64,000 nt of DNA, taken from Paludibacteraceae bacterium. GTDB lineage: Bacteria; Bacteroidota; Bacteroidia; Bacteroidales; Paludibacteraceae. Position 1 is the stretch's first letter, and the number at the start of each line of letters is the position of its first letter. A program made the translations under genes and the position numbers. Where the stretch lies: NCBI GenBank assembly GCA_017555595.1, contig JAFZGC010000067.1, positions 514 through 64,513 on the forward strand, in the 5' to 3' direction. Under the pieces are notes generated by a model. It saw only the letters and a program-made list of their open reading frames with translations, made no database searches and was not told the DNA's origin. Positions 3,009 to 53,810 of this stretch are shown here, piece after piece.

Positions 3009-3056
3009 TGTTTTGTTTTGTTTTTTGTTGATTGTCTTAACTTCAGCAGGTTTCTT

Positions 3057-3091
3057 CAGCCTCTCGCCTTTAGCCTTTAGCCTCTCGCCTC
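3057..3091. repeat. Five heptamers cagcctc tcgcctt tagcctt tagcctc tcgcctc in the rpsL-rpsG spacer
   Basis: Exact 7-bp phasing. On the mRNA strand it reads GAGGCGA GAGGCTA AAGGCTA AAGGCGA GAGGCTG. Confidence 0.9.
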
Positions 3092-3186
3092 AAGAACTTA
3101 CTCCACCCTGCTTACTCAACCGATCAACCCATTAATAATCTGTCCCAGCGTATGGAACTTTTAGTTAGTTTTGTCAGAATAACCCT

Positions 3187-3220
3187 GCCTTTAGCCTTTC
3201 GCCTCATAGCCTCATAGCCT
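3187..3220. repeat. Second array in the rpsL-rpsG spacer (gccttta gcctttc gcctcata gcctcata gcct)
   Basis: The period is 7/7/8/8 and the motif family is the same GCC(T/A). Confidence 0.85.
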
Positions 3221-3248
3221 ACAAAGCGAGCCCACAGGGCGTGCAGCT

Positions 3249-3816: not shown

Positions 3817-4242
3817 CTACTTTTTTTCGAATTGGGCAAATATTTCTCGCTAAAAGTTACACTTTTTAGTCATTTTTCTGTATAAAAATTAAAATTGCTA
3901 AACCGACTTTGCAAAATTCACCCCACTTTTCCTCTTAACCCCCTACTCGTCCAATCACTTACAAAACTTTTCAACAACCCAACTCTTTTATAAATCCCTT
4001 TGCCTCCCGCCGTCCTTTGGCTAACCATCGATGCGGTTCTTCGACAATTTAGTTGAAGCCTGTTGCATCAACTTAAGATTCAGCGCACGAGCAGAGCGAG
4101 GAGCGGTGGTAATTTATTACGGAGTACATCGAAATGAAGATGGCACACGCTTTGCAAATAAGATTTATAAGATTTCTCGCGCTTGCGCGTAGGAACTTCG
4201 GTTCTTCGTCAAATTAGTGCCCCCCCTCGCACGCACGATATA

Positions 4243-4297
4243 CCGACACATAACCGACGCATAACCGATACATAACCGATACATAACCGACACATAT
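4243..4297. repeat. 11-bp tandem repeat x5 (ccga[ct][ag]cataa)
   Basis: ccga recurs at 4243, 4254, 4265, 4276 and 4287, an exact 11-bp period. Confidence 0.9.
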
Positions 4298-4342
4298 GAA
4301 TACCCCGTGAATATCCCACGAATACTGACTAAACCTGAAAAA

Positions 4343-13254: not shown

Positions 13255-13320
13255 CACGGACGAGCACGGATGGACACGGAAACACGAATATGGAAAGAGG
13301 CGAGAAGCGAAAGGTTAGAA
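13255..13320 (+). repeat. Decamer array (CACGGAnnnn x3-4) followed by a heptamer array (gaggcga gaagcga aaggtta) abutting the start codon
   Basis: cacgga occurs at 13255, 13265 and 13275, and cacgaa at 13283. The heptamers span 13297-13317. The ATG is at 13322. Confidence 0.8.
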
Positions 13321-17586: not shown

Positions 17587-17678
17587 TTCCGAACTTTTTT
17601 GTTGTTTTACTCCGATTTTTTTGGTCGTTCAACTCCGAATATTTTAAGTTTTTTACTCCGAAATTTGTACTATTTTGG
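17587..17678. repeat. Four degenerate 23-bp direct repeats, exactly phased
   Basis: The tccga core starts at 17588, 17611, 17634 and 17657 (spacing 23/23/23). Each core is followed by a T-rich tract. Confidence 0.85.
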
Positions 17679-19144: not shown

Positions 19145-19324
19145 GTGAAAATATTTGAATTGGTCAAGGGGATGGAACAAATGTACATGATTTTACGGGA
19201 AGAAAGGTTGATAATGTGGTAGTTGTGGGGAATTTGTACAGGGACATTGTTAGCCCACAGAAAGCCTATAGATGTCCTACAGATGTCCTATAGTGGTCCC
19301 GAAACAGGCAAGCAATTTAGTACC

Positions 19325-25546: not shown

Positions 25547-26620
25547 TTACTTGCTAACACGCAGATAAAGCACCACGCCAATAGCAAAGAATAGAAAGTT
25601 AGGCAACCATACGCTCATAAAAGGCGACATGATACCATTTACCGAAAATGTTGTCGAAACGGTCGAGAACAGAATATATAACGCACTAAGTGTCAATCCT
25701 ATTCCTAAATTCTTACCCATTCCACCTCGCACTTTCTTCGAACTCAACGTAACGCCTAATAGGGTCATAATAAACGCACCTACAGGACTTGCCCAACGTT
25801 TCCACCATTCAGTTTCAAAGGCATTTACATTGCCCGAACCACGTTGACGTTGCGTTTCAATATATGCTTTCAATTCTGGATTCGGCATCATCTGGGCATT
25901 CTCTGCAGTGTAGAATAGCTCTTTGGGTAGTACAGGAATAATCGTATCCAAACGATTGCCACGTGTCAGTGTTTCTCGCATGCCATCAAAATCACGGCGC
26001 ACATATTTGTCAAAATGCCAATTATAGGCAGAATCGTAATGAATACGATCAGCTGTGATACGCATGGTCAGTTTCTTGCCTTCAAAATGCTCATAAGAGG
26101 CACGATATCCCATCTGCGTACGTTTTTGGAAACTCTCGATATAAAGAATCGTACCTGGTTCTACCTCCATCTGCACATTACGAGCATTCTCCCGAGTGAA
26201 GTGCTGAATATACTTGTCTTGAAAAGTAAGCATCTTCTCTGAAGCAGGCGGAATCACATAACCTGTCATCCAAAACGAGAAGAGAAACAATAGCAGAGCA
26301 CTAACAAAATAAGGCCACATCAACCGATGATAGCTCACACCACTCGCCAATATTGCAATTATCTCACTATCACCCGCCAGTTTCGACGTGAAGAAAATCA
26401 CCGAAATGAAGATGAATAGCGGACTAAACATATTCATAAAATAGGGGATAAAGTTTAGGTAATAATCAAAGACAATCTCTCGAATAGAGACTTGATTTTC
26501 AAAGAAATCATCCAATTTCTCCGTCAAGTCAAAGATAACGGCAATAACCATAATCAACACAATCGAAAAGAAGAATGTGCCCAAAAACTTACCGATGATA
26601 TATCTATCAATTCGCTTCAC
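25547..26620 (-). CDS. LptF/LptG family LPS export permease
   Basis: 357 aa, (GTG)KRIDRYIIGKFLGTFFFSIVLIM..., with six TM segments. Confidence 0.85.
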   Translation of the reverse strand: MKRIDRYIIGKFLGTFFFSIVLIMVIAVIFDLTEKLDDFFENQVSIREIVFDYYLNFIPYFMNMFSPLFIFISVIFFTSKLAGDSEIIAILASGVSYHRLMWPYFVSALLLFLFSFWMTGYVIPPASEKMLTFQDKYIQHFTRENARNVQMEVEPGTILYIESFQKRTQMGYRASYEHFEGKKLTMRITADRIHYDSAYNWHFDKYVRRDFDGMRETLTRGNRLDTIIPVLPKELFYTAENAQMMPNPELKAYIETQRQRGSGNVNAFETEWWKRWASPVGAFIMTLLGVTLSSKKVRGGMGKNLGIGLTLSALYILFSTVSTTFSVNGIMSPFMSVWLPNFLFFAIGVVLYLRVSK

Positions 26621-26650
26621 CCTTTAACCTATAACCTTTAACCTACATCC
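26621..26650. repeat. Heptamer array cctttaa cctataa cctttaa cctacat
   Basis: The array forms the entire 22-nt tgt-lptF/G spacer and runs into the tgt stop codon at 26643-26645. Confidence 0.85.
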
Positions 26651-29339: not shown

Positions 29340-32300
29340 TTATTCCATTCGTTGTCCTTGCATGTTATACATTTCTTCTCCACGGATAATAATTAGCTGT
29401 CCGTCTTTTAGAACCTTTCTTACTTGGTTGGCAGGTTGCGTTTCTACCATTGGGATAGAAGTAGCGGCATTATCTTGGAATACTACACGAGCTCGAATTG
29501 GCAGTGGTGAAGCAGACTTGAAGTAAGCACGAAGACCAAGAATCGTACGAGGATATGTTCCTGCGCAATACAACGCATTATTTGACAGGAAGTATTCATC
29601 AGACTGATTCAATGTACCACCTGCATCTAATACAGGTACCATTGTTACAGTACCAGAGGTAACAGGTTTCAAAGACAAATCAATCTCTACACCTTCCATA
29701 GTGAAACCATCTTCTGCATCGTATCCACTGGCAGCGGTTTTAAGGATGTATGGCGTACCTGCTGTGATAGTGCTGACTGGTCTGAATTGCAAGTGAACTT
29801 CTTCTGCATTATATTCAACTACATTGTCCAACGCATATACAATAGCATTGCCGAATACATTGCGAATTTGTGTTTCATTCATATCAAATGGCAATGTCAG
29901 TGTCAAATACTTGTTCGCTTCGAAGTTGCGTTTAACCGTTGCTGTTACTACCTCACCGTCATAATTTTCAAGAGCAGTAGTGTTGTCTGCATTTTCGTCA
30001 ACGGTCACAGAAGACTCCAACGCAACATCAAATGTATAAATAGTTGCATCTGCTACAAGTGTGATTAGAAGATTTGTACCATCTACTTCCACAGCAGTTG
30101 CCGCAGCTGTTGCTGCTTGTGGCGTGGTGATATTGCGCGTCTCTAATTCTTGTGCTGTTGCAAGACCATTAGTGATATCAATAATTTTCACACCTGCTAC
30201 ATTTTCGCCGTCTGCATATGGAGCCACCATCAAGTGTTTGCCTAAAACAGTGAGGTAAGTAGCACCATTGAATTTCTTGCCGAGAGTATTATCAGCAATA
30301 TTAGCATTCACAATAGGGTCTTGCCCGTAAGTTTGTGGATTAGTAAACTCTGATGGCTCCATTAACTCTGCATCAATAATCCAGTTTTCTGTAGCTAGTG
30401 GAGATGCATTAAGTTGGAACTTCACGCCATGAGTAGTCTCGTTGTAAACAGCTGCATCAACTCCTGCACTAGCTCCTTTAAACTTCTTACCTATATAATA
30501 ATAATAAGGAAGTGATACCGCACCATCAGAAGTATCAATGTACTTTCCATCTATTATAGAGAAGTGCGACATACGAACACCACGGTGCGTGTTATGAAGC
30601 CCCGTAACAAGAATGTTGGCATTAGTAGAAGTTCCTGTAACGGCCATTGTGTAACCTTGATCTGAGGTAGCAGAGTTGCTTGAAGCACTAGACTGGAACC
30701 AAATAGAAGGATTTGCAGTAAGATTATCCCAAATATAGAATGTTGCTAAGTTAGAACCGCCAAATGTTGTTTGAACATAGTTACAAGCCACCAACTTGCC
30801 GTCCTCTGTCGCAGCAATATCAGAGATTGAGAGATAACCTGCCGCAGCAGCCTCTACACCCACTTGTGATATTTCTGCTTCTAACTCACCAGCCACTACT
30901 TTATAGAGGTGTGGAGTGCCATTTGCTTCGTGTGTGAGAACTACGGTGCTTTCGCCAATTTGAACAGCGCGTTTCACAACACCTTCCATTGCAAGTGGCT
31001 TCAATTCGAAGTTGGCAGTAACAGTTATATCACCTTCTACAACGAGCGCCAATGGATTGTCTGCAACAGTAGTTGTTCCATAAGTCCAGTTTACAAAACG
31101 ATAGTTCTCATTAGCAGTTGCTGCCAGTGTTGCCGTTTCGCCAGTCTTGTATTCACCACCACCTGCTACAGTACCCATCGCATTGTCATTAGCCTCTACA
31201 GTTACTGTATATCTTGCTTCTTTCATGATTATTTGTGACTCAGGAGCAGGAACGGTGCAAGTGTTGTTGTTGGTAGGAAGAACATACTTGTAGAAGCGCT
31301 CTGTGCCAGAGTGTACTACATATAAGTCACCCGCATAGTCGAAGGCAAGACCATCAAGTTCATTCCTTCCAAGATTTGGAGTTTGGCATATTTTAGAAAT
31401 TGATGGTACACCATCAGCAGCATATGTCACTTGGAATACAGAAGCACATGCTTGTGAATGTACAGCCAATATGTCTCGTTGCTTATCATATGCAATTGCT
31501 CCACGATAGTTTGCTCCAGCGAACCAATCAGAATATTCTTTATCCGCTTCGACTTTGAAATCGATTTTATTTTCAGCCACATTCACATGGAATAATGTAC
31601 CAGCTGCCGTTCCCCAACGATTCTGTGCAATCCAAAGACCACCATGACCATCAGAAGCCATAGCAATTTCTTGATCATAGAACAAGTTTCCGCCATTTGA
31701 TGTCAACTCTTTATAAGTACCATCAGTCTTTATCTGATATATGTTTCCATTTGGAGCACCAGATGTAGAAACATTAGCTACTACATACAAATTGCCTTCA
31801 TCGTCAAAGCATAGTGCATTTACTTTTTGAATTTCTGAAATATGCTTTGTCAGATTGATAGCTTCACCAGCTAAATTCTCTCTGCTTACTGCATATGCTC
31901 CACCATTCGTGGTTGTATTATTGCAGAATGCAATATCTCCATTCGCTGGATTAATTGTAATACGCTTAAAGACTTGTCGGTTTGCACCTATTGTATATGG
32001 CAATTGGGGTTTGATACCTGTGTTAGCAGGGGCATTCAACTCCTCTAATGCTTGATTATAGATAAATATACCTGCCTTTTGGGTATCAGAGCGATCCGCT
32101 ATGCCATCTGATGCACCATTATACGACTGTTGAATATAAATCTTTCCAAATTCATCGGAGTTAGGATCATTATCCACTACTACGCCCATCATGTTGTAGA
32201 AGTCGTAGATGTTGCGTGCTGGGTTAGTGATTTCTGCCATTTTAGCAATTGCTTCACCTGCGAGTTCTACTTCCCAGTAAATATCTTTGGTAGCAGCAGC

Positions 32301-35300
32301 AAATACGGTCTTTGCAATCGTAATTGTTTTTTCTTCAGCAGTAGTAGCAGTTGCGGTATGTGTACCAAAGTTCTGTATATTACCATCCTCATCCTTAAAG
32401 ATTAAGGTAGCAGTACCTGCGCTGGTTGTCTTGAAGGTGAATATGTAATTAGCTGGATCTGTATCTGCGTCTAACCTTAAATCATACGCCCACGCGCGTG
32501 GAACGGCAACTTTGAAGTTAGCTGTCAGATTTACATCCCCTGTTAATTCATCTATAGTACGAGTTTCCTCAGTTACGCCATCGCTCCAATCTACGAATAC
32601 ATAACCACCCTTAGCTGTTGCGGTCAGCGTCACCTCTGTACCCTCATAGTAAGAACCATCACCTGTAACAGTTCCCATAATGTTATCATAAGTCACATTG
32701 ATGGTGTATTTCGTTTTCTCTACGAAGTTAGCAACATAAGTAGCAGACTCTGTTACGACAAATGTATATGGATTCTCAGTAGATACCTCTGCATCATCTT
32801 TAGTCCAATTAACAAACTTGTAGTTTGTTGCAGCAACAGCGGTGATAGTAGCATTTTGATTTTCTTCGAATGTTCCGCCACCGTTAGCGATACCCCACTC
32901 ATTATTATTAGATGCTACACTTACGGTGTACACTGGAGTAAAGCGAACAGCCTCTAATGCAGGAGCTGCTACGGTGCAGATGTTGTCTGCGGTAGGCAAG
33001 GTGAACTTTTGGAATTTCTCTTTATGTGAGTTTACTACATACAAGTCACCTGCATAGTCAAATGCAAGACCGTCAATATTATTGCCTAAATCATCACTTG
33101 CGATAGTATATAATGGAGTCAATTCGATAGTAGGCTCGTAGCTTACAGTATAAAGCTCTACCTTACCATTTCTACCTTGTGCTAATATCTTACGCTCTAC
33201 ATCGTATGCCAACGCACCACGATTAGAACCTCCTTCAAAACCATGAGGTGTCTCCTGATTTACCCACCAATCAAATTCGCCAGTGCTTGTTACATGCACC
33301 AATTGATAATAATATGGAGCACCATCCATTTGACCACGGTTTTGGCTTATCCAAAGACCACCACGACCATCGGATGCCATTGTGATATATGCATTAATAA
33401 ATTTAGCTGAAATTTCAGTAATTCGAGTTGCTTCTCCATTTATTACCTTGTAAACAGCACCTGTGCTGCCAGCGAAATCCATTACATACAGTGTTCCTTC
33501 TGCGTCAAAGCAATGTGCTACCGAACGGGTCATATCTGCAACACCTGTGAGCAAGTTGGTAACATCACCAGTCATATCATCACGATTGATAGCAAACACT
33601 GCTGGTTTACCTGCAACTGCGTGACTAAATACCAAGTTACCTGTCTTAGGATGGATATTCAATCGTTGGAATGCAGAAGAAGACGAACCGATCTCTGTAT
33701 ATCCAGCTGGCATTGTAGGTTTAAGACCAACATTTGAAGGATTATTCAATTCCTCCAACGCTTGATTATAGATGAACACACCAGATTTTTGGTCATTTGA
33801 ACGAGTAGTTAGACCATTGTTACTTGTACTACTACTTGCATAAGAACGCTCATACGACTGTTGAATATAAATTTTACCAAAGTCTTTTGAGTCGGTATTA
33901 TTATCCACAACCACACCCATCATATTATAGAAGTCGTAGATGCCGCGGGTTTGGTCGGTTACTTCTGCAATAGCAGGGATAGGCTCACCGTCCATTGTAA
34001 TAGACCAAAAAGCATCCACACCTGCTGCAAAAGCGTTTTTAGCTATAGTGAACTTATTCTCTCCAACAAAAGCTGCTATTGTTTGTGATGCAGGTTGCGC
34101 CAACGCATTACCGTCCTTATCTTTGAAAGTGATGGTTGCTTGTCCATCGGCAGTCGCTTTGAAGGTGAATGTGTAGTTGTCGCCATCCTCACCTAATTTC
34201 ATATCGTATGCCCATGCGCGAGGGTGCGCCTCTGCAAACTCAGCGATATACTCTGCTGCACCAGTTACAGTAATAGTGCGTGGGTTGTCGGTGTTACCAT
34301 CATTCCATTGAGTGAAGTAGTAAGCGCTCTTAGCAACAGCTTTGAGCGTAACTTCTTCGCCTTCGTAATAGTCGCCACGACCTGTTACATAACCTTTGCT
34401 TGTATGGTCTGCGTGTGCATTGATGTTGTATTGCGCCAATGCCTCGAAGTTGGCTACGAGTTCTACATTCTCTGTTACAGGGAATGAATAGGTTGCCTCA
34501 GTCGAAACCTCTACACCATCTTTTGTCCAATTCACAAATTTGTAACCAGTGTTAGGAGTTGCTGTCAAAGTAGCAGTTGCTCCTTCTTGGTAAGCGCCTG
34601 CGCCTGTAACAGTTCCGTTTGTAGCACTTGCAGAAACGGTGTAGTTTTCTTTGAGAGATACTCTCCAAACAGCCGCTGCTACAGCTGGACAGAATTGATA
34701 GATATAAGCCGTCTTCTCATCTACAACTTGCACATTGAGCCAGTTAGCAGCACTATTTTTGCTTGTCTTATCTTTTGCAAAGAGTATTTCTTCAGAAACA
34801 AGTTTTCCGTCTGTAGCATTTATCAACTGCCATTCGCTGGAGTAGGCAGTTGTACCAGCGACATATGCCCAGAACTCTTTTCCTCCCAATTCAAATGTAC
34901 AGCCACCGATTGTAGAATTTTTCTTAGCTAAATAAGGATCTTCGGTAGATGTTAATGTGGTAATATTGTACTCAAATGCACCTGCATTTTTAGATTGTGT
35001 ATGGATATTACCATAAATATCCAATACCACATTGCTTTGCGAGGAAGCAGCATTAGTAATATTTGCTATAGTATCGTCTGTTACATCTTCAGCGGTTGCA
35101 GCACCATTTTTGATAAATAATCTTGATATCGTTTTTTGATCCTTACAGAAGAAATACACATACCCCCCCTCTGCACTATAGATATTTCCAGAAGCTGTTA
35201 GGAAATCGCAACGACCTGGTGCATCTAGTGTGAAACTTACAGGAGTTCCTGTAGTGCTACCATTTGGATAAATAATGATAGCATTGGGATTTGCAGCATA

Positions 35301-37316
35301 GAAAGTAGCATTAAACACAATCAAGTTACCTGCCTCATCAACAGCAATTTGCTGACCAATACCAGATGATGTCACATATTCTGTACCAGTATCATCTGCA
35401 TCAGAGTAGGTTAATATTTTCTTGTTACCAGCATCTTGCATATAAATTGTTCCATCCCAACCTACTGCTTGATAACCATTACTTGTAGATGTAGGAACAT
35501 GCGTATTCTCCCAAACTTTCTCAATGGTAAATGTAGGATCAGCTGCGTACTCTTTTACAAAGTAAGCAGAAACTGCTTTATTGTTATCCATTGTGAGAGT
35601 GATAGAAGGTGTAGTTGCTTTGTTGCTCCAAGCAAGCAGTTTGTAGCCAGGCTTTGGAGTAGCAGTCAGTGCCACCTCTGTACCATATTCATAAGAACCT
35701 GTAGCGACATCTATTGTACCTTTGTTCTCGTCATTAACAAACACGGTCAAGGTGTGTTTCTGCTTCTCAAAGTTCGCAGTAATAGTCATATCGCTATTTA
35801 CCGTAATGGTCAATGGGTTCTCATTAGAAGTAACATCACCTGTCCAATTGACAAAATCATAGTGTTCGTTAGCTACAGCAGTAAGTTCTGCGGAAGCGCC
35901 TGCTTCATAAGTACCCAAATTACCTGTAATTGAACCCTCGCCAACAACTTGTGTTGTCACCGTGTATAATGTTACATCCGCTTCTTTTTTCGTAACAATA
36001 TACGCCTTTTTAGCTGGTACTTCACAGGTATTGTTGTCTGTAGGTATTGTATATTGTATAAGACGCATAACATCACTATCTGTGCCACTATAAGACGCTC
36101 CGGTACAAGCAAGAAGGTTGCCAGCATAATCAAACGATAATGTACTAACATATCTATCAGAAATGGTATGCGTCTGTTTTAAAGCAAGCTCAGGTGTCTT
36201 ACCATCCCATACTACATCATATTCTAATATGCTTGTTGAACCACAAATAAATAACTTACTATTATCACTATTTACAGCGAGACCTGCACCTTCACACTTT
36301 CCCTTGTCTATTGAATATTGCAGAACTCCTGTATTATCAATGAACGCTAATTCTTTACGACCTGTTGTTCCATCATTTTGACTCACCCAAACACCTTTTT
36401 CTGTAGCAGCAAAGGCATTGTTGGTAGATGGATTTATACTAGCATAGGCGGTGCATATCCAGGTAGGTACATCGCTCCAAGTTTTTAATATACTACCATC
36501 TAGTTGACCAATATGATAGCAAACTGCTGATGAAGCATTTGTTCCATCTTCCATCATAGTATAAAGAACAGTATTTGCACCTGATCCATAAATACCCACA
36601 CCTGAAGTAGAACTACCTATTTCTTTGCCTGCAGCATTGGTAAAGAGACCATTAGAATCACGAGTACCATTATAGAACTGTGTACAAGTGGTTAGGTCTG
36701 ATGGATTTACCACCCAAATTCCAGATCTTCTAGCATCTGTATAATCTGCTAAAAACAAGGTACCGTCTGCAGCTACTGCGGGACGTGCGTATCCACTTTC
36801 ATCTCGACCGAGTGCATAGACCGTATTATTAATAAGCTGTAAATCAGGAGTGTAGACATATAAGCCACTCTTGCTATTAGAAGTTCGTCTATCTGTAACA
36901 TATACTCGACCAAAGTAATCAGATTCTGGGCTATTATCGATAGTAGCATGGCCGCGACCATATTTTTTGGCACCAGTGTACACTGCTTCGAATGCAGTAA
37001 CTTCTGCAGCTGATAACTCTACTGACCAATTGAGTTGCTGACCATCATTGCCTGGCAAACTATACTCAGCAATTTCAACTTCGTTTTTGCCCAATACAGG
37101 ATTTGTCAATGCTATCTCTCCTACCAACTCACTGGAGGTTGCATCATAAAATATGATCTTACCAGATGTAGGAGTTTCATTCGCTGTGAAAGAAAAGGTA
37201 TAAACCTTATCCACCAGCGCAGACGAAAGATCATAAGCGTATATTCGCTTAGGTTGTGCTGCAAACGATAACAAACTTATCGTCATCGCAACTAAAAATA
37301 GAGTAAGTTTTTTCAT
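29340..37316 (-). CDS. Giant secreted modular protein (2658 aa): beta-propeller-like modules alternating with seven InlB B-repeat/Listeria-Bacteroides-type repeats, a conserved C-terminal domain and tail ...KDGQLIIIRGEEMYNMQGQRME
   Basis: Signal peptide MKKLTLFLVAMTISLLSFA. Seven copies of the ...G.V.G.G.Y..G....L.A....GY.F..W... repeat are present. LAFDYAGDLYVV occurs twice and the variant LSFDYAGNLL once. Confidence 0.9.
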   Translation of the reverse strand: MKKLTLFLVAMTISLLSFAAQPKRIYAYDLSSALVDKVYTFSFTANETPTSGKIIFYDATSSELVGEIALTNPVLGKNEVEIAEYSLPGNDGQQLNWSVELSAAEVTAFEAVYTGAKKYGRGHATIDNSPESDYFGRVYVTDRRTSNSKSGLYVYTPDLQLINNTVYALGRDESGYARPAVAADGTLFLADYTDARRSGIWVVNPSDLTTCTQFYNGTRDSNGLFTNAAGKEIGSSTSGVGIYGSGANTVLYTMMEDGTNASSAVCYHIGQLDGSILKTWSDVPTWICTAYASINPSTNNAFAATEKGVWVSQNDGTTGRKELAFIDNTGVLQYSIDKGKCEGAGLAVNSDNSKLFICGSTSILEYDVVWDGKTPELALKQTHTISDRYVSTLSFDYAGNLLACTGASYSGTDSDVMRLIQYTIPTDNNTCEVPAKKAYIVTKKEADVTLYTVTTQVVGEGSITGNLGTYEAGASAELTAVANEHYDFVNWTGDVTSNENPLTITVNSDMTITANFEKQKHTLTVFVNDENKGTIDVATGSYEYGTEVALTATPKPGYKLLAWSNKATTPSITLTMDNNKAVSAYFVKEYAADPTFTIEKVWENTHVPTSTSNGYQAVGWDGTIYMQDAGNKKILTYSDADDTGTEYVTSSGIGQQIAVDEAGNLIVFNATFYAANPNAIIIYPNGSTTGTPVSFTLDAPGRCDFLTASGNIYSAEGGYVYFFCKDQKTISRLFIKNGAATAEDVTDDTIANITNAASSQSNVVLDIYGNIHTQSKNAGAFEYNITTLTSTEDPYLAKKNSTIGGCTFELGGKEFWAYVAGTTAYSSEWQLINATDGKLVSEEILFAKDKTSKNSAANWLNVQVVDEKTAYIYQFCPAVAAAVWRVSLKENYTVSASATNGTVTGAGAYQEGATATLTATPNTGYKFVNWTKDGVEVSTEATYSFPVTENVELVANFEALAQYNINAHADHTSKGYVTGRGDYYEGEEVTLKAVAKSAYYFTQWNDGNTDNPRTITVTGAAEYIAEFAEAHPRAWAYDMKLGEDGDNYTFTFKATADGQATITFKDKDGNALAQPASQTIAAFVGENKFTIAKNAFAAGVDAFWSITMDGEPIPAIAEVTDQTRGIYDFYNMMGVVVDNNTDSKDFGKIYIQQSYERSYASSSTSNNGLTTRSNDQKSGVFIYNQALEELNNPSNVGLKPTMPAGYTEIGSSSSAFQRLNIHPKTGNLVFSHAVAGKPAVFAINRDDMTGDVTNLLTGVADMTRSVAHCFDAEGTLYVMDFAGSTGAVYKVINGEATRITEISAKFINAYITMASDGRGGLWISQNRGQMDGAPYYYQLVHVTSTGEFDWWVNQETPHGFEGGSNRGALAYDVERKILAQGRNGKVELYTVSYEPTIELTPLYTIASDDLGNNIDGLAFDYAGDLYVVNSHKEKFQKFTLPTADNICTVAAPALEAVRFTPVYTVSVASNNNEWGIANGGGTFEENQNATITAVAATNYKFVNWTKDDAEVSTENPYTFVVTESATYVANFVEKTKYTINVTYDNIMGTVTGDGSYYEGTEVTLTATAKGGYVFVDWSDGVTEETRTIDELTGDVNLTANFKVAVPRAWAYDLRLDADTDPANYIFTFKTTSAGTATLIFKDEDGNIQNFGTHTATATTAEEKTITIAKTVFAAATKDIYWEVELAGEAIAKMAEITNPARNIYDFYNMMGVVVDNDPNSDEFGKIYIQQSYNGASDGIADRSDTQKAGIFIYNQALEELNAPANTGIKPQLPYTIGANRQVFKRITINPANGDIAFCNNTTTNGGAYAVSRENLAGEAINLTKHISEIQKVNALCFDDEGNLYVVANVSTSGAPNGNIYQIKTDGTYKELTSNGGNLFYDQEIAMASDGHGGLWIAQNRWGTAAGTLFHVNVAENKIDFKVEADKEYSDWFAGANYRGAIAYDKQRDILAVHSQACASVFQVTYAADGVPSISKICQTPNLGRNELDGLAFDYAGDLYVVHSGTERFYKYVLPTNNNTCTVPAPESQIIMKEARYTVTVEANDNAMGTVAGGGEYKTGETATLAATANENYRFVNWTYGTTTVADNPLALVVEGDITVTANFELKPLAMEGVVKRAVQIGESTVVLTHEANGTPHLYKVVAGELEAEISQVGVEAAAAGYLSISDIAATEDGKLVACNYVQTTFGGSNLATFYIWDNLTANPSIWFQSSASSNSATSDQGYTMAVTGTSTNANILVTGLHNTHRGVRMSHFSIIDGKYIDTSDGAVSLPYYYYIGKKFKGASAGVDAAVYNETTHGVKFQLNASPLATENWIIDAELMEPSEFTNPQTYGQDPIVNANIADNTLGKKFNGATYLTVLGKHLMVAPYADGENVAGVKIIDITNGLATAQELETRNITTPQAATAAATAVEVDGTNLLITLVADATIYTFDVALESSVTVDENADNTTALENYDGEVVTATVKRNFEANKYLTLTLPFDMNETQIRNVFGNAIVYALDNVVEYNAEEVHLQFRPVSTITAGTPYILKTAASGYDAEDGFTMEGVEIDLSLKPVTSGTVTMVPVLDAGGTLNQSDEYFLSNNALYCAGTYPRTILGLRAYFKSASPLPIRARVVFQDNAATSIPMVETQPANQVRKVLKDGQLIIIRGEEMYNMQGQRME
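31005..34226 (-). repeat. Intragenic tandem duplication of a ~570-aa module (period about 1720 nt), recognisable at DNA level
   Basis: HPRAWAYDMKL starts near 34226 and VPRAWAYDLRL near 32506. DNA at about 32130-32240 and 33860-33970 is clearly homologous (ttgaatataaat...cccatcat...tagaagtcgtagat). Confidence 0.85.
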
Positions 37317-38669: not shown

Positions 38670-38672
38670 TTT

Positions 38673-38707
38673 GTCAATTCAAAATTCTTAATTCTTAATT
38701 CAAAATT
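38673..38707. repeat. Heptamer array gtcaatt caaaatt cttaatt cttaatt caaaatt
   Basis: The array fills the kdsD-DAHPS spacer. It carries the same motif as 25512-25539 in the opposite orientation relative to transcription. Confidence 0.85.
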
Positions 38708-39686: not shown

Positions 39687-39728
39687 TCTAGCCTTTAACC
39701 GTTCGCCTTTAACCTCTAACCTCTCGCC
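39687..39728. repeat. Six heptamers tctagcc tttaacc gttcgcc tttaacc tctaacc tctcgcc
   Basis: The array spans the kdsA-kdsD junction. It provides the last four kdsA codons (QARG), the TAG stop at 39716-39718 and the whole spacer up to 3 nt before the kdsD ATG. Confidence 0.9.
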
Positions 39729-40516
39729 TGCTCAATCGCCATCGCTTGCCTCAGTATCGCTTCTACATCGCTCAAACGTACTTGATTGGCAGCGTCGGAG
39801 ATGGCTTTTTCTGGTTCTGGGTGAACCTCCAAGAATAGTCCATCTATGCCTACTGCCACCGCCGCACGAATCAGATGCGGTACCATCTCTCGGTTGCCGC
39901 CCGTCACGCCTGCCTGACTGCTGGGTTGCTGTACGGAGTGGGTAGCATCGAACACAACAGGATAGCCATACTCGCGCATCTTCACCAGCGATGTCATATC
40001 CACAATCAAGTTGCCATAGCCAAAGCTACTTCCGCGCTCCGTGAGCCAAATCCCCGCCTCTTGCCTTTCGCCTCTCGCCTCATCGCCTAATAGTCTTCTC
40101 GCCTCTTCTATCTTCGCTATCGCACCGCGCATGTCCCATGGTGCCATAAACTGCCCCTTCTTCACATTGACAATCTTGCCTGTCTTAGCCGCAGCCACCA
40201 GCAAGTCGGTCTGACGAGAGAGAAAAGCAGGAATCTGCAATACATCCGCCACTTCTGCTACTGGAGCACACTGCCATGACTCATGTACATCGGTCAAGAT
40301 GGGTAAACCGAAAGTAGATTTCACTTCTTGCAAAATCTTCAGTCCTTCGTCCATACCCACACCGCGATCCGACATACTCGTGCGGTTGGCTTTGTCGTAC
40401 GACGATTTGAAGTATAGTGTGATACCCAATCGCTCACAGATCAGCTTCAATGATTCAGCAGTATGCATCACGATATCGCGGCTCTCTATGGCACATGGCC
40501 CTGCTATCAGAAACAT
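39716..40516 (-). CDS. kdsA: 2-dehydro-3-deoxyphosphooctonate aldolase (KDO-8-phosphate synthase)
   Basis: 266 aa with [34 protein letters not shown] and FDATHS. Confidence 0.92.
40054..40105. repeat. Heptamer-type array (ccgcctc ttgcctt tcgcctc tcgcctc atcgcct ... ttctcgcctc) inside the kdsA coding sequence
   Basis: It encodes ...[16 protein letters not shown]... The corresponding E. coli KdsA segment, as I remember it, is about 11 aa shorter. Confidence 0.75.
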
Positions 40517-41638: not shown

Positions 41639-41657
41639 GTCTTTTTGTTTGTTTCTA

Positions 41658-41701
41658 ACAGCGCAGCGGTCTAATATCCAACAGCGCAGCGGTCTAACAT
41701 C
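41658..41701. repeat. 23-bp tandem duplication aacagcgcagcggtctaa(t/c)at x2 across the end of the LOG gene
   Basis: The copies are at 41658-41678 and 41681-41701. The upstream copy encodes LDRCAV, and the other lies just past the TAG stop. Confidence 0.85.
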
Positions 41702-44441: not shown

Positions 44442-44571
44442 TTATTGTGATTTCACTAGGATTTTCACTAGAATGCAGCCATAAATCTTTAGTGATTTAT
44501 TAGTTATTCTTTAGTTATTCAGCAACTTTCACTATAGGATGGATTGTAAATGCCCGCTGCGGGCAGATAAA

Positions 44572-45786: not shown

Positions 45787-45821
45787 GGCGAGAGGTTAGA
45801 GGTTAGAGGTTAAAGGCGGGG
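45787..45821. repeat. Five heptamers ggcgaga ggttaga ggttaga ggttaaa ggcgggg
   Basis: On the minus strand the array encodes the last residues ...PPLTSNL and the TAA stop of the exonuclease gene. It lies 4 nt upstream of the rlmI-like ATG. Confidence 0.9.
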
Positions 45822-52658: not shown

Positions 52659-52702
52659 ATTGTGTGGTTATTGTCTGGTAATAGTGTGGTTATTGTGTGG
52701 TG
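52659..52702. repeat. 11-mer array attgtgtggtt attgtctggta atagtgtggtt attgtgtggtg (downstream flank of asd)
   Basis: Exact 11-bp phasing over four units. Confidence 0.9.
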
Positions 52703-52723
52703 CGAGTGAGAACCCTCAAGGAA

Positions 52724-53758: not shown

Positions 53759-53810
53759 ATTGTGCGTCTATTGTCCGTCTATTGTGTGTGAATAGTGCGT
53801 TATTGATAGG
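53759..53810. repeat. 11-mer array attgtgcgtct attgtccgtct attgtgtgtga atagtgcgtt attgatagg (upstream flank of asd)
   Basis: The motif family and orientation are the same as 52659-52702. Confidence 0.9.

Follow-up and report, generated by a model that had tools for sequence, protein, structure and literature searches.

What produced the run of six seven-base units that makes up the last codons of kdsA, its stop codon and the entire spacer to kdsD, and does the run have a role there? The locus lies in a 64-kb stretch of DNA (hereafter the window, meaning the whole stretch analysed) from an uncultured gut or rumen member of the Paludibacteraceae, whose best kdsA relative shares 88% amino-acid identity. 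An earlier note on the same DNA had placed seven arrays of one heptamer family, GGYKARA, in the window. All seven were present, exactly or at most a few bases away, and the phased 7-mers could be read directly at each. The following features are discussed below, with units given on the GG-containing strand unless specified.

3055 to 3091, minus strand: rpsL-rpsG hairpin-loop array, GGCGAGA GGCTAAA GGCTAAA GGCGAGA GGCTGAA
3183 to 3220, minus strand: array after the rpsL stop, GGCTATGA GGCTATGA GGCGAAA GGCTAAA GGCAGGG, the first two units being 8-mers
13299 to 13319, plus strand: array before the DMT_6 gene, three units, GGCGAGA AGCGAAA GGTTAGA
26621 to 26650, minus strand: tgt-lptF/G array, GGATGTA GGTTAAA GGTTATA GGTTAAA GG
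38670 to 38705, minus strand: second heptamer family, GAATTAA/GAATTTT on the mRNA strand, AATTCTT on the plus strand
39687 to 39728, minus strand: kdsA-kdsD array, six units, GGCGAGA GGTTAGA GGTTAAA GGCGAAC GGTTAAA GGCTAGA, followed by ATT and ATG
40052 to 40105, minus strand: kdsA-loop array, degenerate, GAGGCGA...GGCGAGA GGCGAAA GGCAAGA GGCGGGG
45787 to 45821, plus strand: exonuclease-tail array, GGCGAGA GGTTAGA GGTTAGA GGTTAAA GGCGGGG, with the C-rich strand as the mRNA

We defined a strict array as at least three phased 7-mers of the form GGYKARN (GG-Y-K-A-R-N), and a looser setting allowed one mismatch per unit. Three strict arrays were found in the window, at 3062-3089 (minus strand, 4 units), 39687-39728 (minus strand, 6 units) and 45787-45814 (plus strand, 4 units), compared with none of three or more units in 200 dinucleotide-preserving shuffles, the control that the earlier note had called for. 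The looser setting added 13299-13319, 26623-26643 and 40052-40079 and lengthened two of the strict arrays; because the shuffles then averaged 1.4 arrays, it is only their membership of the family that makes the three-unit arrays convincing. Independently of the phased-unit scan, TRF returned period-7 rows at five of the window loci, and a generic periodicity score identified 4 period-7 arrays in the window alone (0.08 in shuffles). GGCGAGA was the opening unit of 5/7 window arrays. Over both strands of the 64 kb, GGCGGGG turned up at just two places, in each closing an array at its 3' end, and an array in the related locus L003 (L numbers label related loci or contigs) had the same ending. The window also contained two intergenic tandem repeats of period 23, at 17588-17676 (TCCGAA...TTTTAC, 3.4 copies) and 41657-41701 (AACAGCGCAGCGGTCTAACATCC, two copies).

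The gene contexts first described for these arrays proved accurate. The kdsA ORF (39716-40516, minus strand) ends in ...EQARG*, and its TAG stop (39716-39718) lies inside unit 2 of the 39687-39728 array, which spans the last kdsA codons, the stop and the whole spacer before ending 3 nt short of the ATG (39683) of kdsD, encoding a SIS+CBS protein. Likewise, the tgt stop codon falls inside the 26621-26650 array, which forms the whole spacer and abuts the GTG start of lptF/G at 26620 (LptF_LptG Pfam profile positions 1-353 match residues 6-354 of this protein). The 13299-13319 array ends 2 nt upstream of the ATG of the DMT_6 family gene, and both rps arrays are located within the 240-nt rpsL-rpsG leader. 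A 3'-5' exonuclease gene takes its last 7 codons and its stop (...PPLTSNL*) from the C-rich strand of the 45787 array. The 14-nt spacer between this stop and the ATG (45782) of an RlmI-like methyltransferase gene likewise consists entirely of the array, which is thus also a junction array before a start codon, only inverted. The earlier note had overlooked this second role, as it had the 38670-38705 family, which constitutes the entire 36-nt spacer from kdsD to the next, DAHP-synthase-family, gene; related units occur in L007, L233 and L234. Four window arrays stop 0-4 nt short of a start codon, one of them in inverted orientation. The GG strand is the mRNA strand in 6/7 window arrays, as had been reported; the further proposal, that a GG thereby recurs at 7-nt intervals before the next start codon, held for 3/7 arrays and failed for the others.

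Same-species contigs from other samples and other assemblers were recovered through exact-protein look-ups; look-ups of this type meant to extend past the window returned nothing. The kdsA-kdsD array had six units in 5/5 of these contigs (three identical, two with 2 point changes), the tgt array was identical in 5 contigs and the exonuclease array in 3. Assembly or polishing artefacts, which the earlier note had considered, are therefore ruled out, since the arrays match in independent contigs from other samples and other assemblers. At the kdsA, tgt and exonuclease arrays, 5-6 independent contigs of the species showed no copy-number differences, and phase variation by contingency simple-sequence repeats (SSRs) was rejected for want of such unit-number polymorphism. 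Compared with L094, the 42-nt kdsA-kdsD array carried 2 substitutions while the 5.2 kb around kdsA differed at 0.46% of sites, so the array is not more constrained than its flanks. Two further differences between contigs were observed. At ~37470 and below, the identity between the window and L094 (99.5% above this point) collapses in the start region of a 2658-aa ORF (29340-37316), which marks this gene or its upstream region as a strain-variable locus. Relative to L222, the RlmI-like methyltransferase gene has a 1-nt deletion at ~45677 that breaks the 403-aa frame; L223 shares the deletion, which is either a true frameshift polymorphism or a homopolymer error.

We then applied the periodicity score to 1.38 Mb, made up of the window and 80 kdsA loci. 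The density of period-7 arrays was ~10 per 100 kb whether the Paludibacteraceae group was close or more distant, against ~0.1 in shuffles. Across the 1.38 Mb, periods 4-6, 9, 10, 12 and 13 were 5 to 70 times rarer than period 7, and the period-14 signal was a harmonic of 7. Runs of at least four near-identical units numbered 68 for period 7 versus 2, 7 and 1 for periods 6, 8 and 9, respectively, and locally shuffled sequence gave 0 such runs at period 7. Neither the orthologous 50-kb region of E. coli nor the six most distant kdsA loci contained period-7 arrays. Dozens of unrelated unit sequences were used across the clade (for example AATTGAC, AAATCAT, AATTATC, CTGAAAN, GTGTAAA and ACACTAA); most families were AT-rich and had no GG, and several unrelated families coexisted in single genomes. 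The GGYKARA family was used by the window lineage and a few close relatives (L001, L003, L004, L007 and L028). Of the pairs of unlinked arrays within one 20-kb locus, 20% belonged to one unit family (at most 1 mismatch), compared to 7% between genomes, and the within-genome value exceeded all 1000 label permutations. The unit order GGCTATRA-GGCGAGA-...-GGTTAAA-GGCRGGG recurred in L003, L004 and L143. In metagenome and viral scans, GGNNARA heptamer arrays were scattered over very diverse environments, organisms and GC contents, and these scans gave no help on mechanism.

Other tandem repeats were encountered in the same loci. A perfect CTTTCGA ×4 array was present in L016 (5415-5442 and 18149-18176), L017 (3592-3619), L019 (17874-17901) and L039 (19910-19937). 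Several related genomes keep it at two different loci, always with exactly four copies, and one of these loci is apparently inside an RdgB/HAM1-like coding region. Intergenic tandem arrays of period 11 occurred in the window at 4242-4325, 19265-19293, 44486-44520, 52659-52708 and 53759-53785 (5 versus 0.05 in shuffles), with 29 in the close Paludibacteraceae loci and none in the more distant group. They may form a repeat class of their own, with the period of a helical turn.

Four-unit arrays were somewhat commoner in the clade than geometric decay predicts. This mild excess, and the GG that recurs every 7 nt over four or more units in several window arrays, bring to mind G-quadruplexes or phase-variable contingency loci, the more so as four-unit-preferring heptamers of Xanthomonas and Nostoc form such quadruplexes (PMC4692102). 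We regard this as highly improbable for the arrays described here. Their G tracts are just two bases long with 5-nt loops, the ViennaRNA G-quadruplex model predicted no quadruplex, and most clade families are AT-rich; the unit number of three arrays was constant among 5-6 same-species contigs, and the neighbouring genes are housekeeping genes.

The arrays were strongly concentrated between genes. Seventy-two percent of 133 arrays lay outside ORFs, in a data set in which non-ORF DNA made up 10.5% of the sequence. Co-directional gene junctions, where the earlier note had suggested testing for enrichment, accounted for 73/88 arrays at classifiable junctions. Where spacers were short (median 43 nt), the array was most of the spacer. 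In spacers of at least 100 nt, 12/36 arrays ended within 13 nt of the downstream start, compared with 2.9 ± 1.7 under random placement (maximum 9 in 2000 trials); this clade-wide figure rests on crude gene calls (first ATG) and may be inflated, and the window cases are backed by homology. Such an excess beside start codons may reflect selection or some connection with the start region. On the mRNA strand G exceeded C in 47/73 arrays and A exceeded T in 46/70. The strand bias claimed initially is real but not a rule: one window array and both L007 arrays lie just before a start codon with the C-rich strand as the mRNA.

Such positions raise the possibility that the arrays act as RNA, either as periodic binding sites for S1, an RRM or a cold-shock-domain protein, or by offering ribosomes a structure-free landing pad that sets downstream translation in operons without Shine-Dalgarno sequences. 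The ending of four window arrays 0-4 nt before a start codon, the enrichment beside start codons in long spacers across the clade, the purine-rich mRNA strand in 47/73 arrays and the GG sense in 6/7 window arrays are all consistent with this, as is the ViennaRNA prediction that the arrays are less structured than their shuffled versions; MacGregor suggested this role for the TAACTGA repeats (PMC4679880). We nevertheless consider a functional RNA distinctly unlikely. Array orientation varies, arrays also occupy an RNA hairpin loop, a protein loop and positions after stop codons, several unrelated families are found in one genome, and orthologous junctions in relatives hold unrelated units or none. 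Array-bearing and array-free start regions folded alike (p = 0.26), conservation of the arrays does not exceed that of their flanks, and the start-codon enrichment itself depends on the crude gene calls. For the same reasons (the occurrence of arrays in RNA and protein loops, the AT-rich families without GG and the lack of a folding difference) the specific protein-binding or translational-coupling role offered in the earlier note found no support.

Several narrower functional or structural candidates were also dropped. A special RNA structure was rejected as the arrays fold more weakly than shuffled sequence and array-bearing start regions resemble others; an Rfam scan of the window returned tRNAs only, with no array match. 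Mimicry of a Shine-Dalgarno sequence (GAGGT) was dismissed since most clade families have no GAGGT and one window array is inverted before its start codon. Stop codons in all three sense frames were present in 40/73 arrays versus 33.7 ± 3.4 under column permutation, a marginal difference biased by the ORF definition, and were not accepted as a selected trait.

Orthologous sites in relatives revealed how the arrays change. The kdsA-kdsD junction of L001 carries GTGTAAA ×4 followed by GGTTAGA GGTTAAA GGTTAAA GGCAGGG; the 3' part of this array aligns with that of the window, in which the extra GGCGAAC unit is a whole-unit difference. At the same junction L004 has ACACTAA ×3, L016, L028 and L033 have other heptamer families, and L003, L005, L008, L010 and L013 have a plain short spacer. 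Within kdsA, translation of the 40052-40105 array adds 11-17 residues to a KdsA surface loop, between AKIE and IWLTERG. The insertion is a gap relative to the solved structure 1FWN (Aquifex), and the loop is short in distant relatives too. The short loop of L003 already reads GGCGAAA GGCGAAA, and relatives lacking the insertion share the native Ala-Gly codons to which the terminal GGCGGGG corresponds.

The first 35 nt of the kdsA insert (window 40071-40105) are the reverse complement of the in-frame insert of L002 (10417-10451; 29/35 matches), and the kdsA loop of L007 has an 18/18 reverse-complement match to the window insert, so that the segment is read in frame in both orientations among sister lineages. 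The 35-nt sequence occurred at the kdsA-loop locus only. From the aligned sequences, the opposite orientations look like a short in-situ inversion or template-switch event in a coding region. In Paludibacter-type genomes, kdsA runs on into a downstream HAD-phosphatase (kdsC-like) domain, and the linkers are heptamer arrays of different families (L047, L048 (4953-5020), L053, L054 (10767-10841), L057, L059, L060 and L061); here the repeats appear to have fused two genes.

Comparable turnover was seen in the rpsL-rpsG leader. Among genomes with identical S12 or S7 proteins, the leader consists of a common core with a long hairpin and two hypervariable sites. One of these is the apical loop of a conserved hairpin (stem GCAGG...CCTGC), which the 3055-3091 array fills. 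A GGCGAGA array occupies the loop in the window, L090, L236 and L237, with a 2-unit version in L232 versus 5 units in L236. Others carry CTGAAAN ×13 (L082, L086 and L235), AGAATTW ×5 (L234) or ATTGTGM (L083 and L084) in its place, a non-repeat GC hairpin (L228-L231 and L233), or a tetraloop-like turn only (L085, L087 and L089). Three heptamer families of the loop end in and resemble the native CTGAAGA, the last unit merging with native sequence, which fits local seeding. The other site lies directly after the rpsL stop, where the 3183-3220 array is part of a ~66-nt insertion that includes 28 nt of unique non-repeat sequence. This site has no array in L090, L232, L234 and L235, and holds GGYTATA ×4 in L233, YGGRTRT ×8 in L236, CTGAAAN ×6 in L082 and GC-rich hairpin repeats in L228-L231 and L237. 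No seed for the insertion was visible in the empty site of relatives.

The leader had further features of its own. In the spacers of the window (3009-3248), L081-L090 and L228-L237, a strongly conserved core (AAGTTCCATACG.TGGGAC...GGGTTGATCGGTTGAGTAAG...CTGAAGTTAAGACAATCAAC) forms the long hairpin, which is probably an S7 operator; the core had no match in Rfam, and the spacer as a whole showed no special folding (z = -0.78). In some relatives, GC-rich hairpin repeats replace heptamers at both insertion sites.

Whole-unit differences between species, and the presence of different families or none at orthologous sites in sister genomes, best support the last of the origins listed in the earlier note, a slippage or insertion footprint. 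We lean, with modest confidence, towards the arrays being heptanucleotide SSRs made by slippage or template switching in a 7-nt register and retained at low-constraint sites. The excess of period 7, the array positions, the between-species turnover and the within-species constancy are shown directly here, and the mechanism and the near-neutrality of the arrays are what we infer. Replication slippage or template switching would make whole units and then add or remove them. The products would persist only where constraint is low, that is in short co-directional spacers, in the first bases after stops and the last before starts, in the apical loops of hairpin RNAs, and in the surface loops, C-terminal tails and domain linkers of proteins. 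Divergence of the units by point mutation would end slipping and leave the array as a stable spacer. As starts in Bacteroidota would need no Shine-Dalgarno sequence, only an open leader rich in purines and in A, a direct repeat, being unable to self-pair, may be harmless or mildly useful before a start codon.

Some observations count against simple slippage, namely the within-genome sharing of families, the polarity of the arrays, the unseeded insertion after rpsL, the lack of within-species polymorphism, the four-unit excess and the abutment of start codons beyond random placement. Since a shared family and fixed polarity are not explained by simple slippage, a copying or templated mechanism is possible. 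The arrays would then be copies of a discrete, polar, dispersed element, GGCGAGA-(GGYTARA)n-GGCGGGG, spread by ectopic gene conversion, microhomology-mediated template switching or a dedicated template, with slippage acting only afterwards. Unit-family sharing far above the between-genome level points this way, together with the conserved first and last units, the confinement of the rare GGCGGGG to array 3' ends, the unit order repeated in L003, L004 and L143, the insertion after rpsL without a local seed, and the opposite orientations of the 35-nt kdsA-loop segment in sister lineages. We consider this origin unlikely, given that there are no terminal inverted repeats, target-site duplications or associated transposase, that the non-repeat flanks are unique and that array length and unit order vary; furthermore, the terminal GGCGGGG of kdsA corresponds to native Ala-Gly coding sequence found in insertion-free relatives too, and the last unit of the rps loop merges into native sequence. 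An elaborated version, in which a clade-specific templated or copy-paste process writes this polar element and the copies serve as Shine-Dalgarno-independent, structure-free landing pads before starts and also supply material for new loops, tails and linkers in proteins, strikes us as very unlikely. Conventional elements were rejected. A dispersed mobile element with conserved flanks does not fit, as the 28-nt post-rpsL leader and the irregular AAGACTATT segment of the kdsA loop were each found at one locus only, and neither does a REP/BIME or MITE, as these are direct repeats, predicted to be unstructured, with unique flanks, and only the first and last heptamers recur.

The arrays are a new family of a known kind of heptameric tandem repeat, in a newly recognised array-rich clade. 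Cyanobacterial STRR sequences were reportedly described by Mazel et al. in 1990 as dispersed tandem heptamer families, mainly intergenic, with CCCCAGT as an example; STRR families are defined by specific unit sequences of heterocystous cyanobacteria. The comparison with STRRs drawn in the earlier note is apt in that tandem heptamer families are dispersed at many loci, mainly intergenic. It is an analogy and not membership, since the host is a member of the Paludibacteraceae and the GGYKARA units are not among the defined STRR units.

Among long SSRs (LSSRs) in general, heptamers are the most abundant class according to Mrazek et al. (2007), who proposed polymerase slippage, as cited in PMC4679880 and PMC4692102. 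Published surveys, as presented there, show a heptamer bias and a position between aligned ORFs like those seen here (PMC4692102; Mrazek 2007 via PMC4679880). The features that define this class, namely head-to-tail 7-nt units, arrays above chance, gain and loss of units between species and a non-coding excess, are all found here. As summarised in these sources, LSSRs resemble our arrays in the length of head-to-tail 7-nt units beyond chance, the dominance of period 7, the strong non-coding bias, the sporadic, lineage-specific distribution and the proposed origin by polymerase slippage. They differ, on the same summaries, in being perfect repeats, whereas each array here mixes four or five degenerate unit variants and has a polarity, and the uncultured gut Paludibacteraceae lie outside those surveys as the sources outline them.

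The suggestion that nothing of the kind was described in Bacteroidales needs qualification, because TAACTGA repeats of 2-6 copies a few nt upstream of starts were reported by MacGregor (2015) in Beggiatoaceae, cyanobacteria and five Bacteroidetes, including Paludibacter propionicigenes of the same family as the window host (PMC4679880). Those repeats likewise comprise two to six heptamers, are mostly intergenic and contain in-unit stop codons that limit coding overlap; they lie a few nt before starts, including in ribosomal-protein operons (PMC4679880), a position shared by four of the seven window arrays, one of them inverted. In contrast, the arrays here have another unit sequence and many families per genome, and form protein loops, tails and linkers as well as an RNA hairpin loop. 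Membership of the TAACTGA family was excluded, as no TAACTGA tandem of two or more units was present in the window or any fetched locus. Rehm et al. (2015) described G-rich GGGNATC and GGGGA(C/T)T heptamers preferentially placed between aligned ORFs of Xanthomonas and Nostoc, with a four-unit preference and no function identified (PMC4692102). These too are genome-wide G-rich heptamers, rare between divergent ORFs and often near ORF ends, whose length and sequence vary at conserved junctions of related species and whose associated genes belong to all functional classes (PMC4692102). However, their GGG/GGGG tracts form quadruplexes in vitro, compared with GG only and no predicted quadruplex here, and they have an orientation preference unlike that of our arrays (PMC4692102).

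Why bacteria favour 7-base repeats, and reuse one unit family at unlinked sites, is a question dating from the description of STRRs. With its many closely related uncultured genomes, this clade is an unusually clean comparative system for it, and the hot spots are defined: the kdsA-kdsD junction, the KdsA surface loop and the two rpsL-rpsG leader sites. At these, arrays have been gained, replaced, resized or inverted while the flanking proteins remained unchanged. The arrays are also a hazard for annotation, as they make stop codons, start contexts and apparent gene fusions that can mislead gene callers. Finally, repeats that have turned coding, as in the C-terminal tails, the enzyme loop and the KdsA-phosphatase linker, represent a route from junk repeat to protein.
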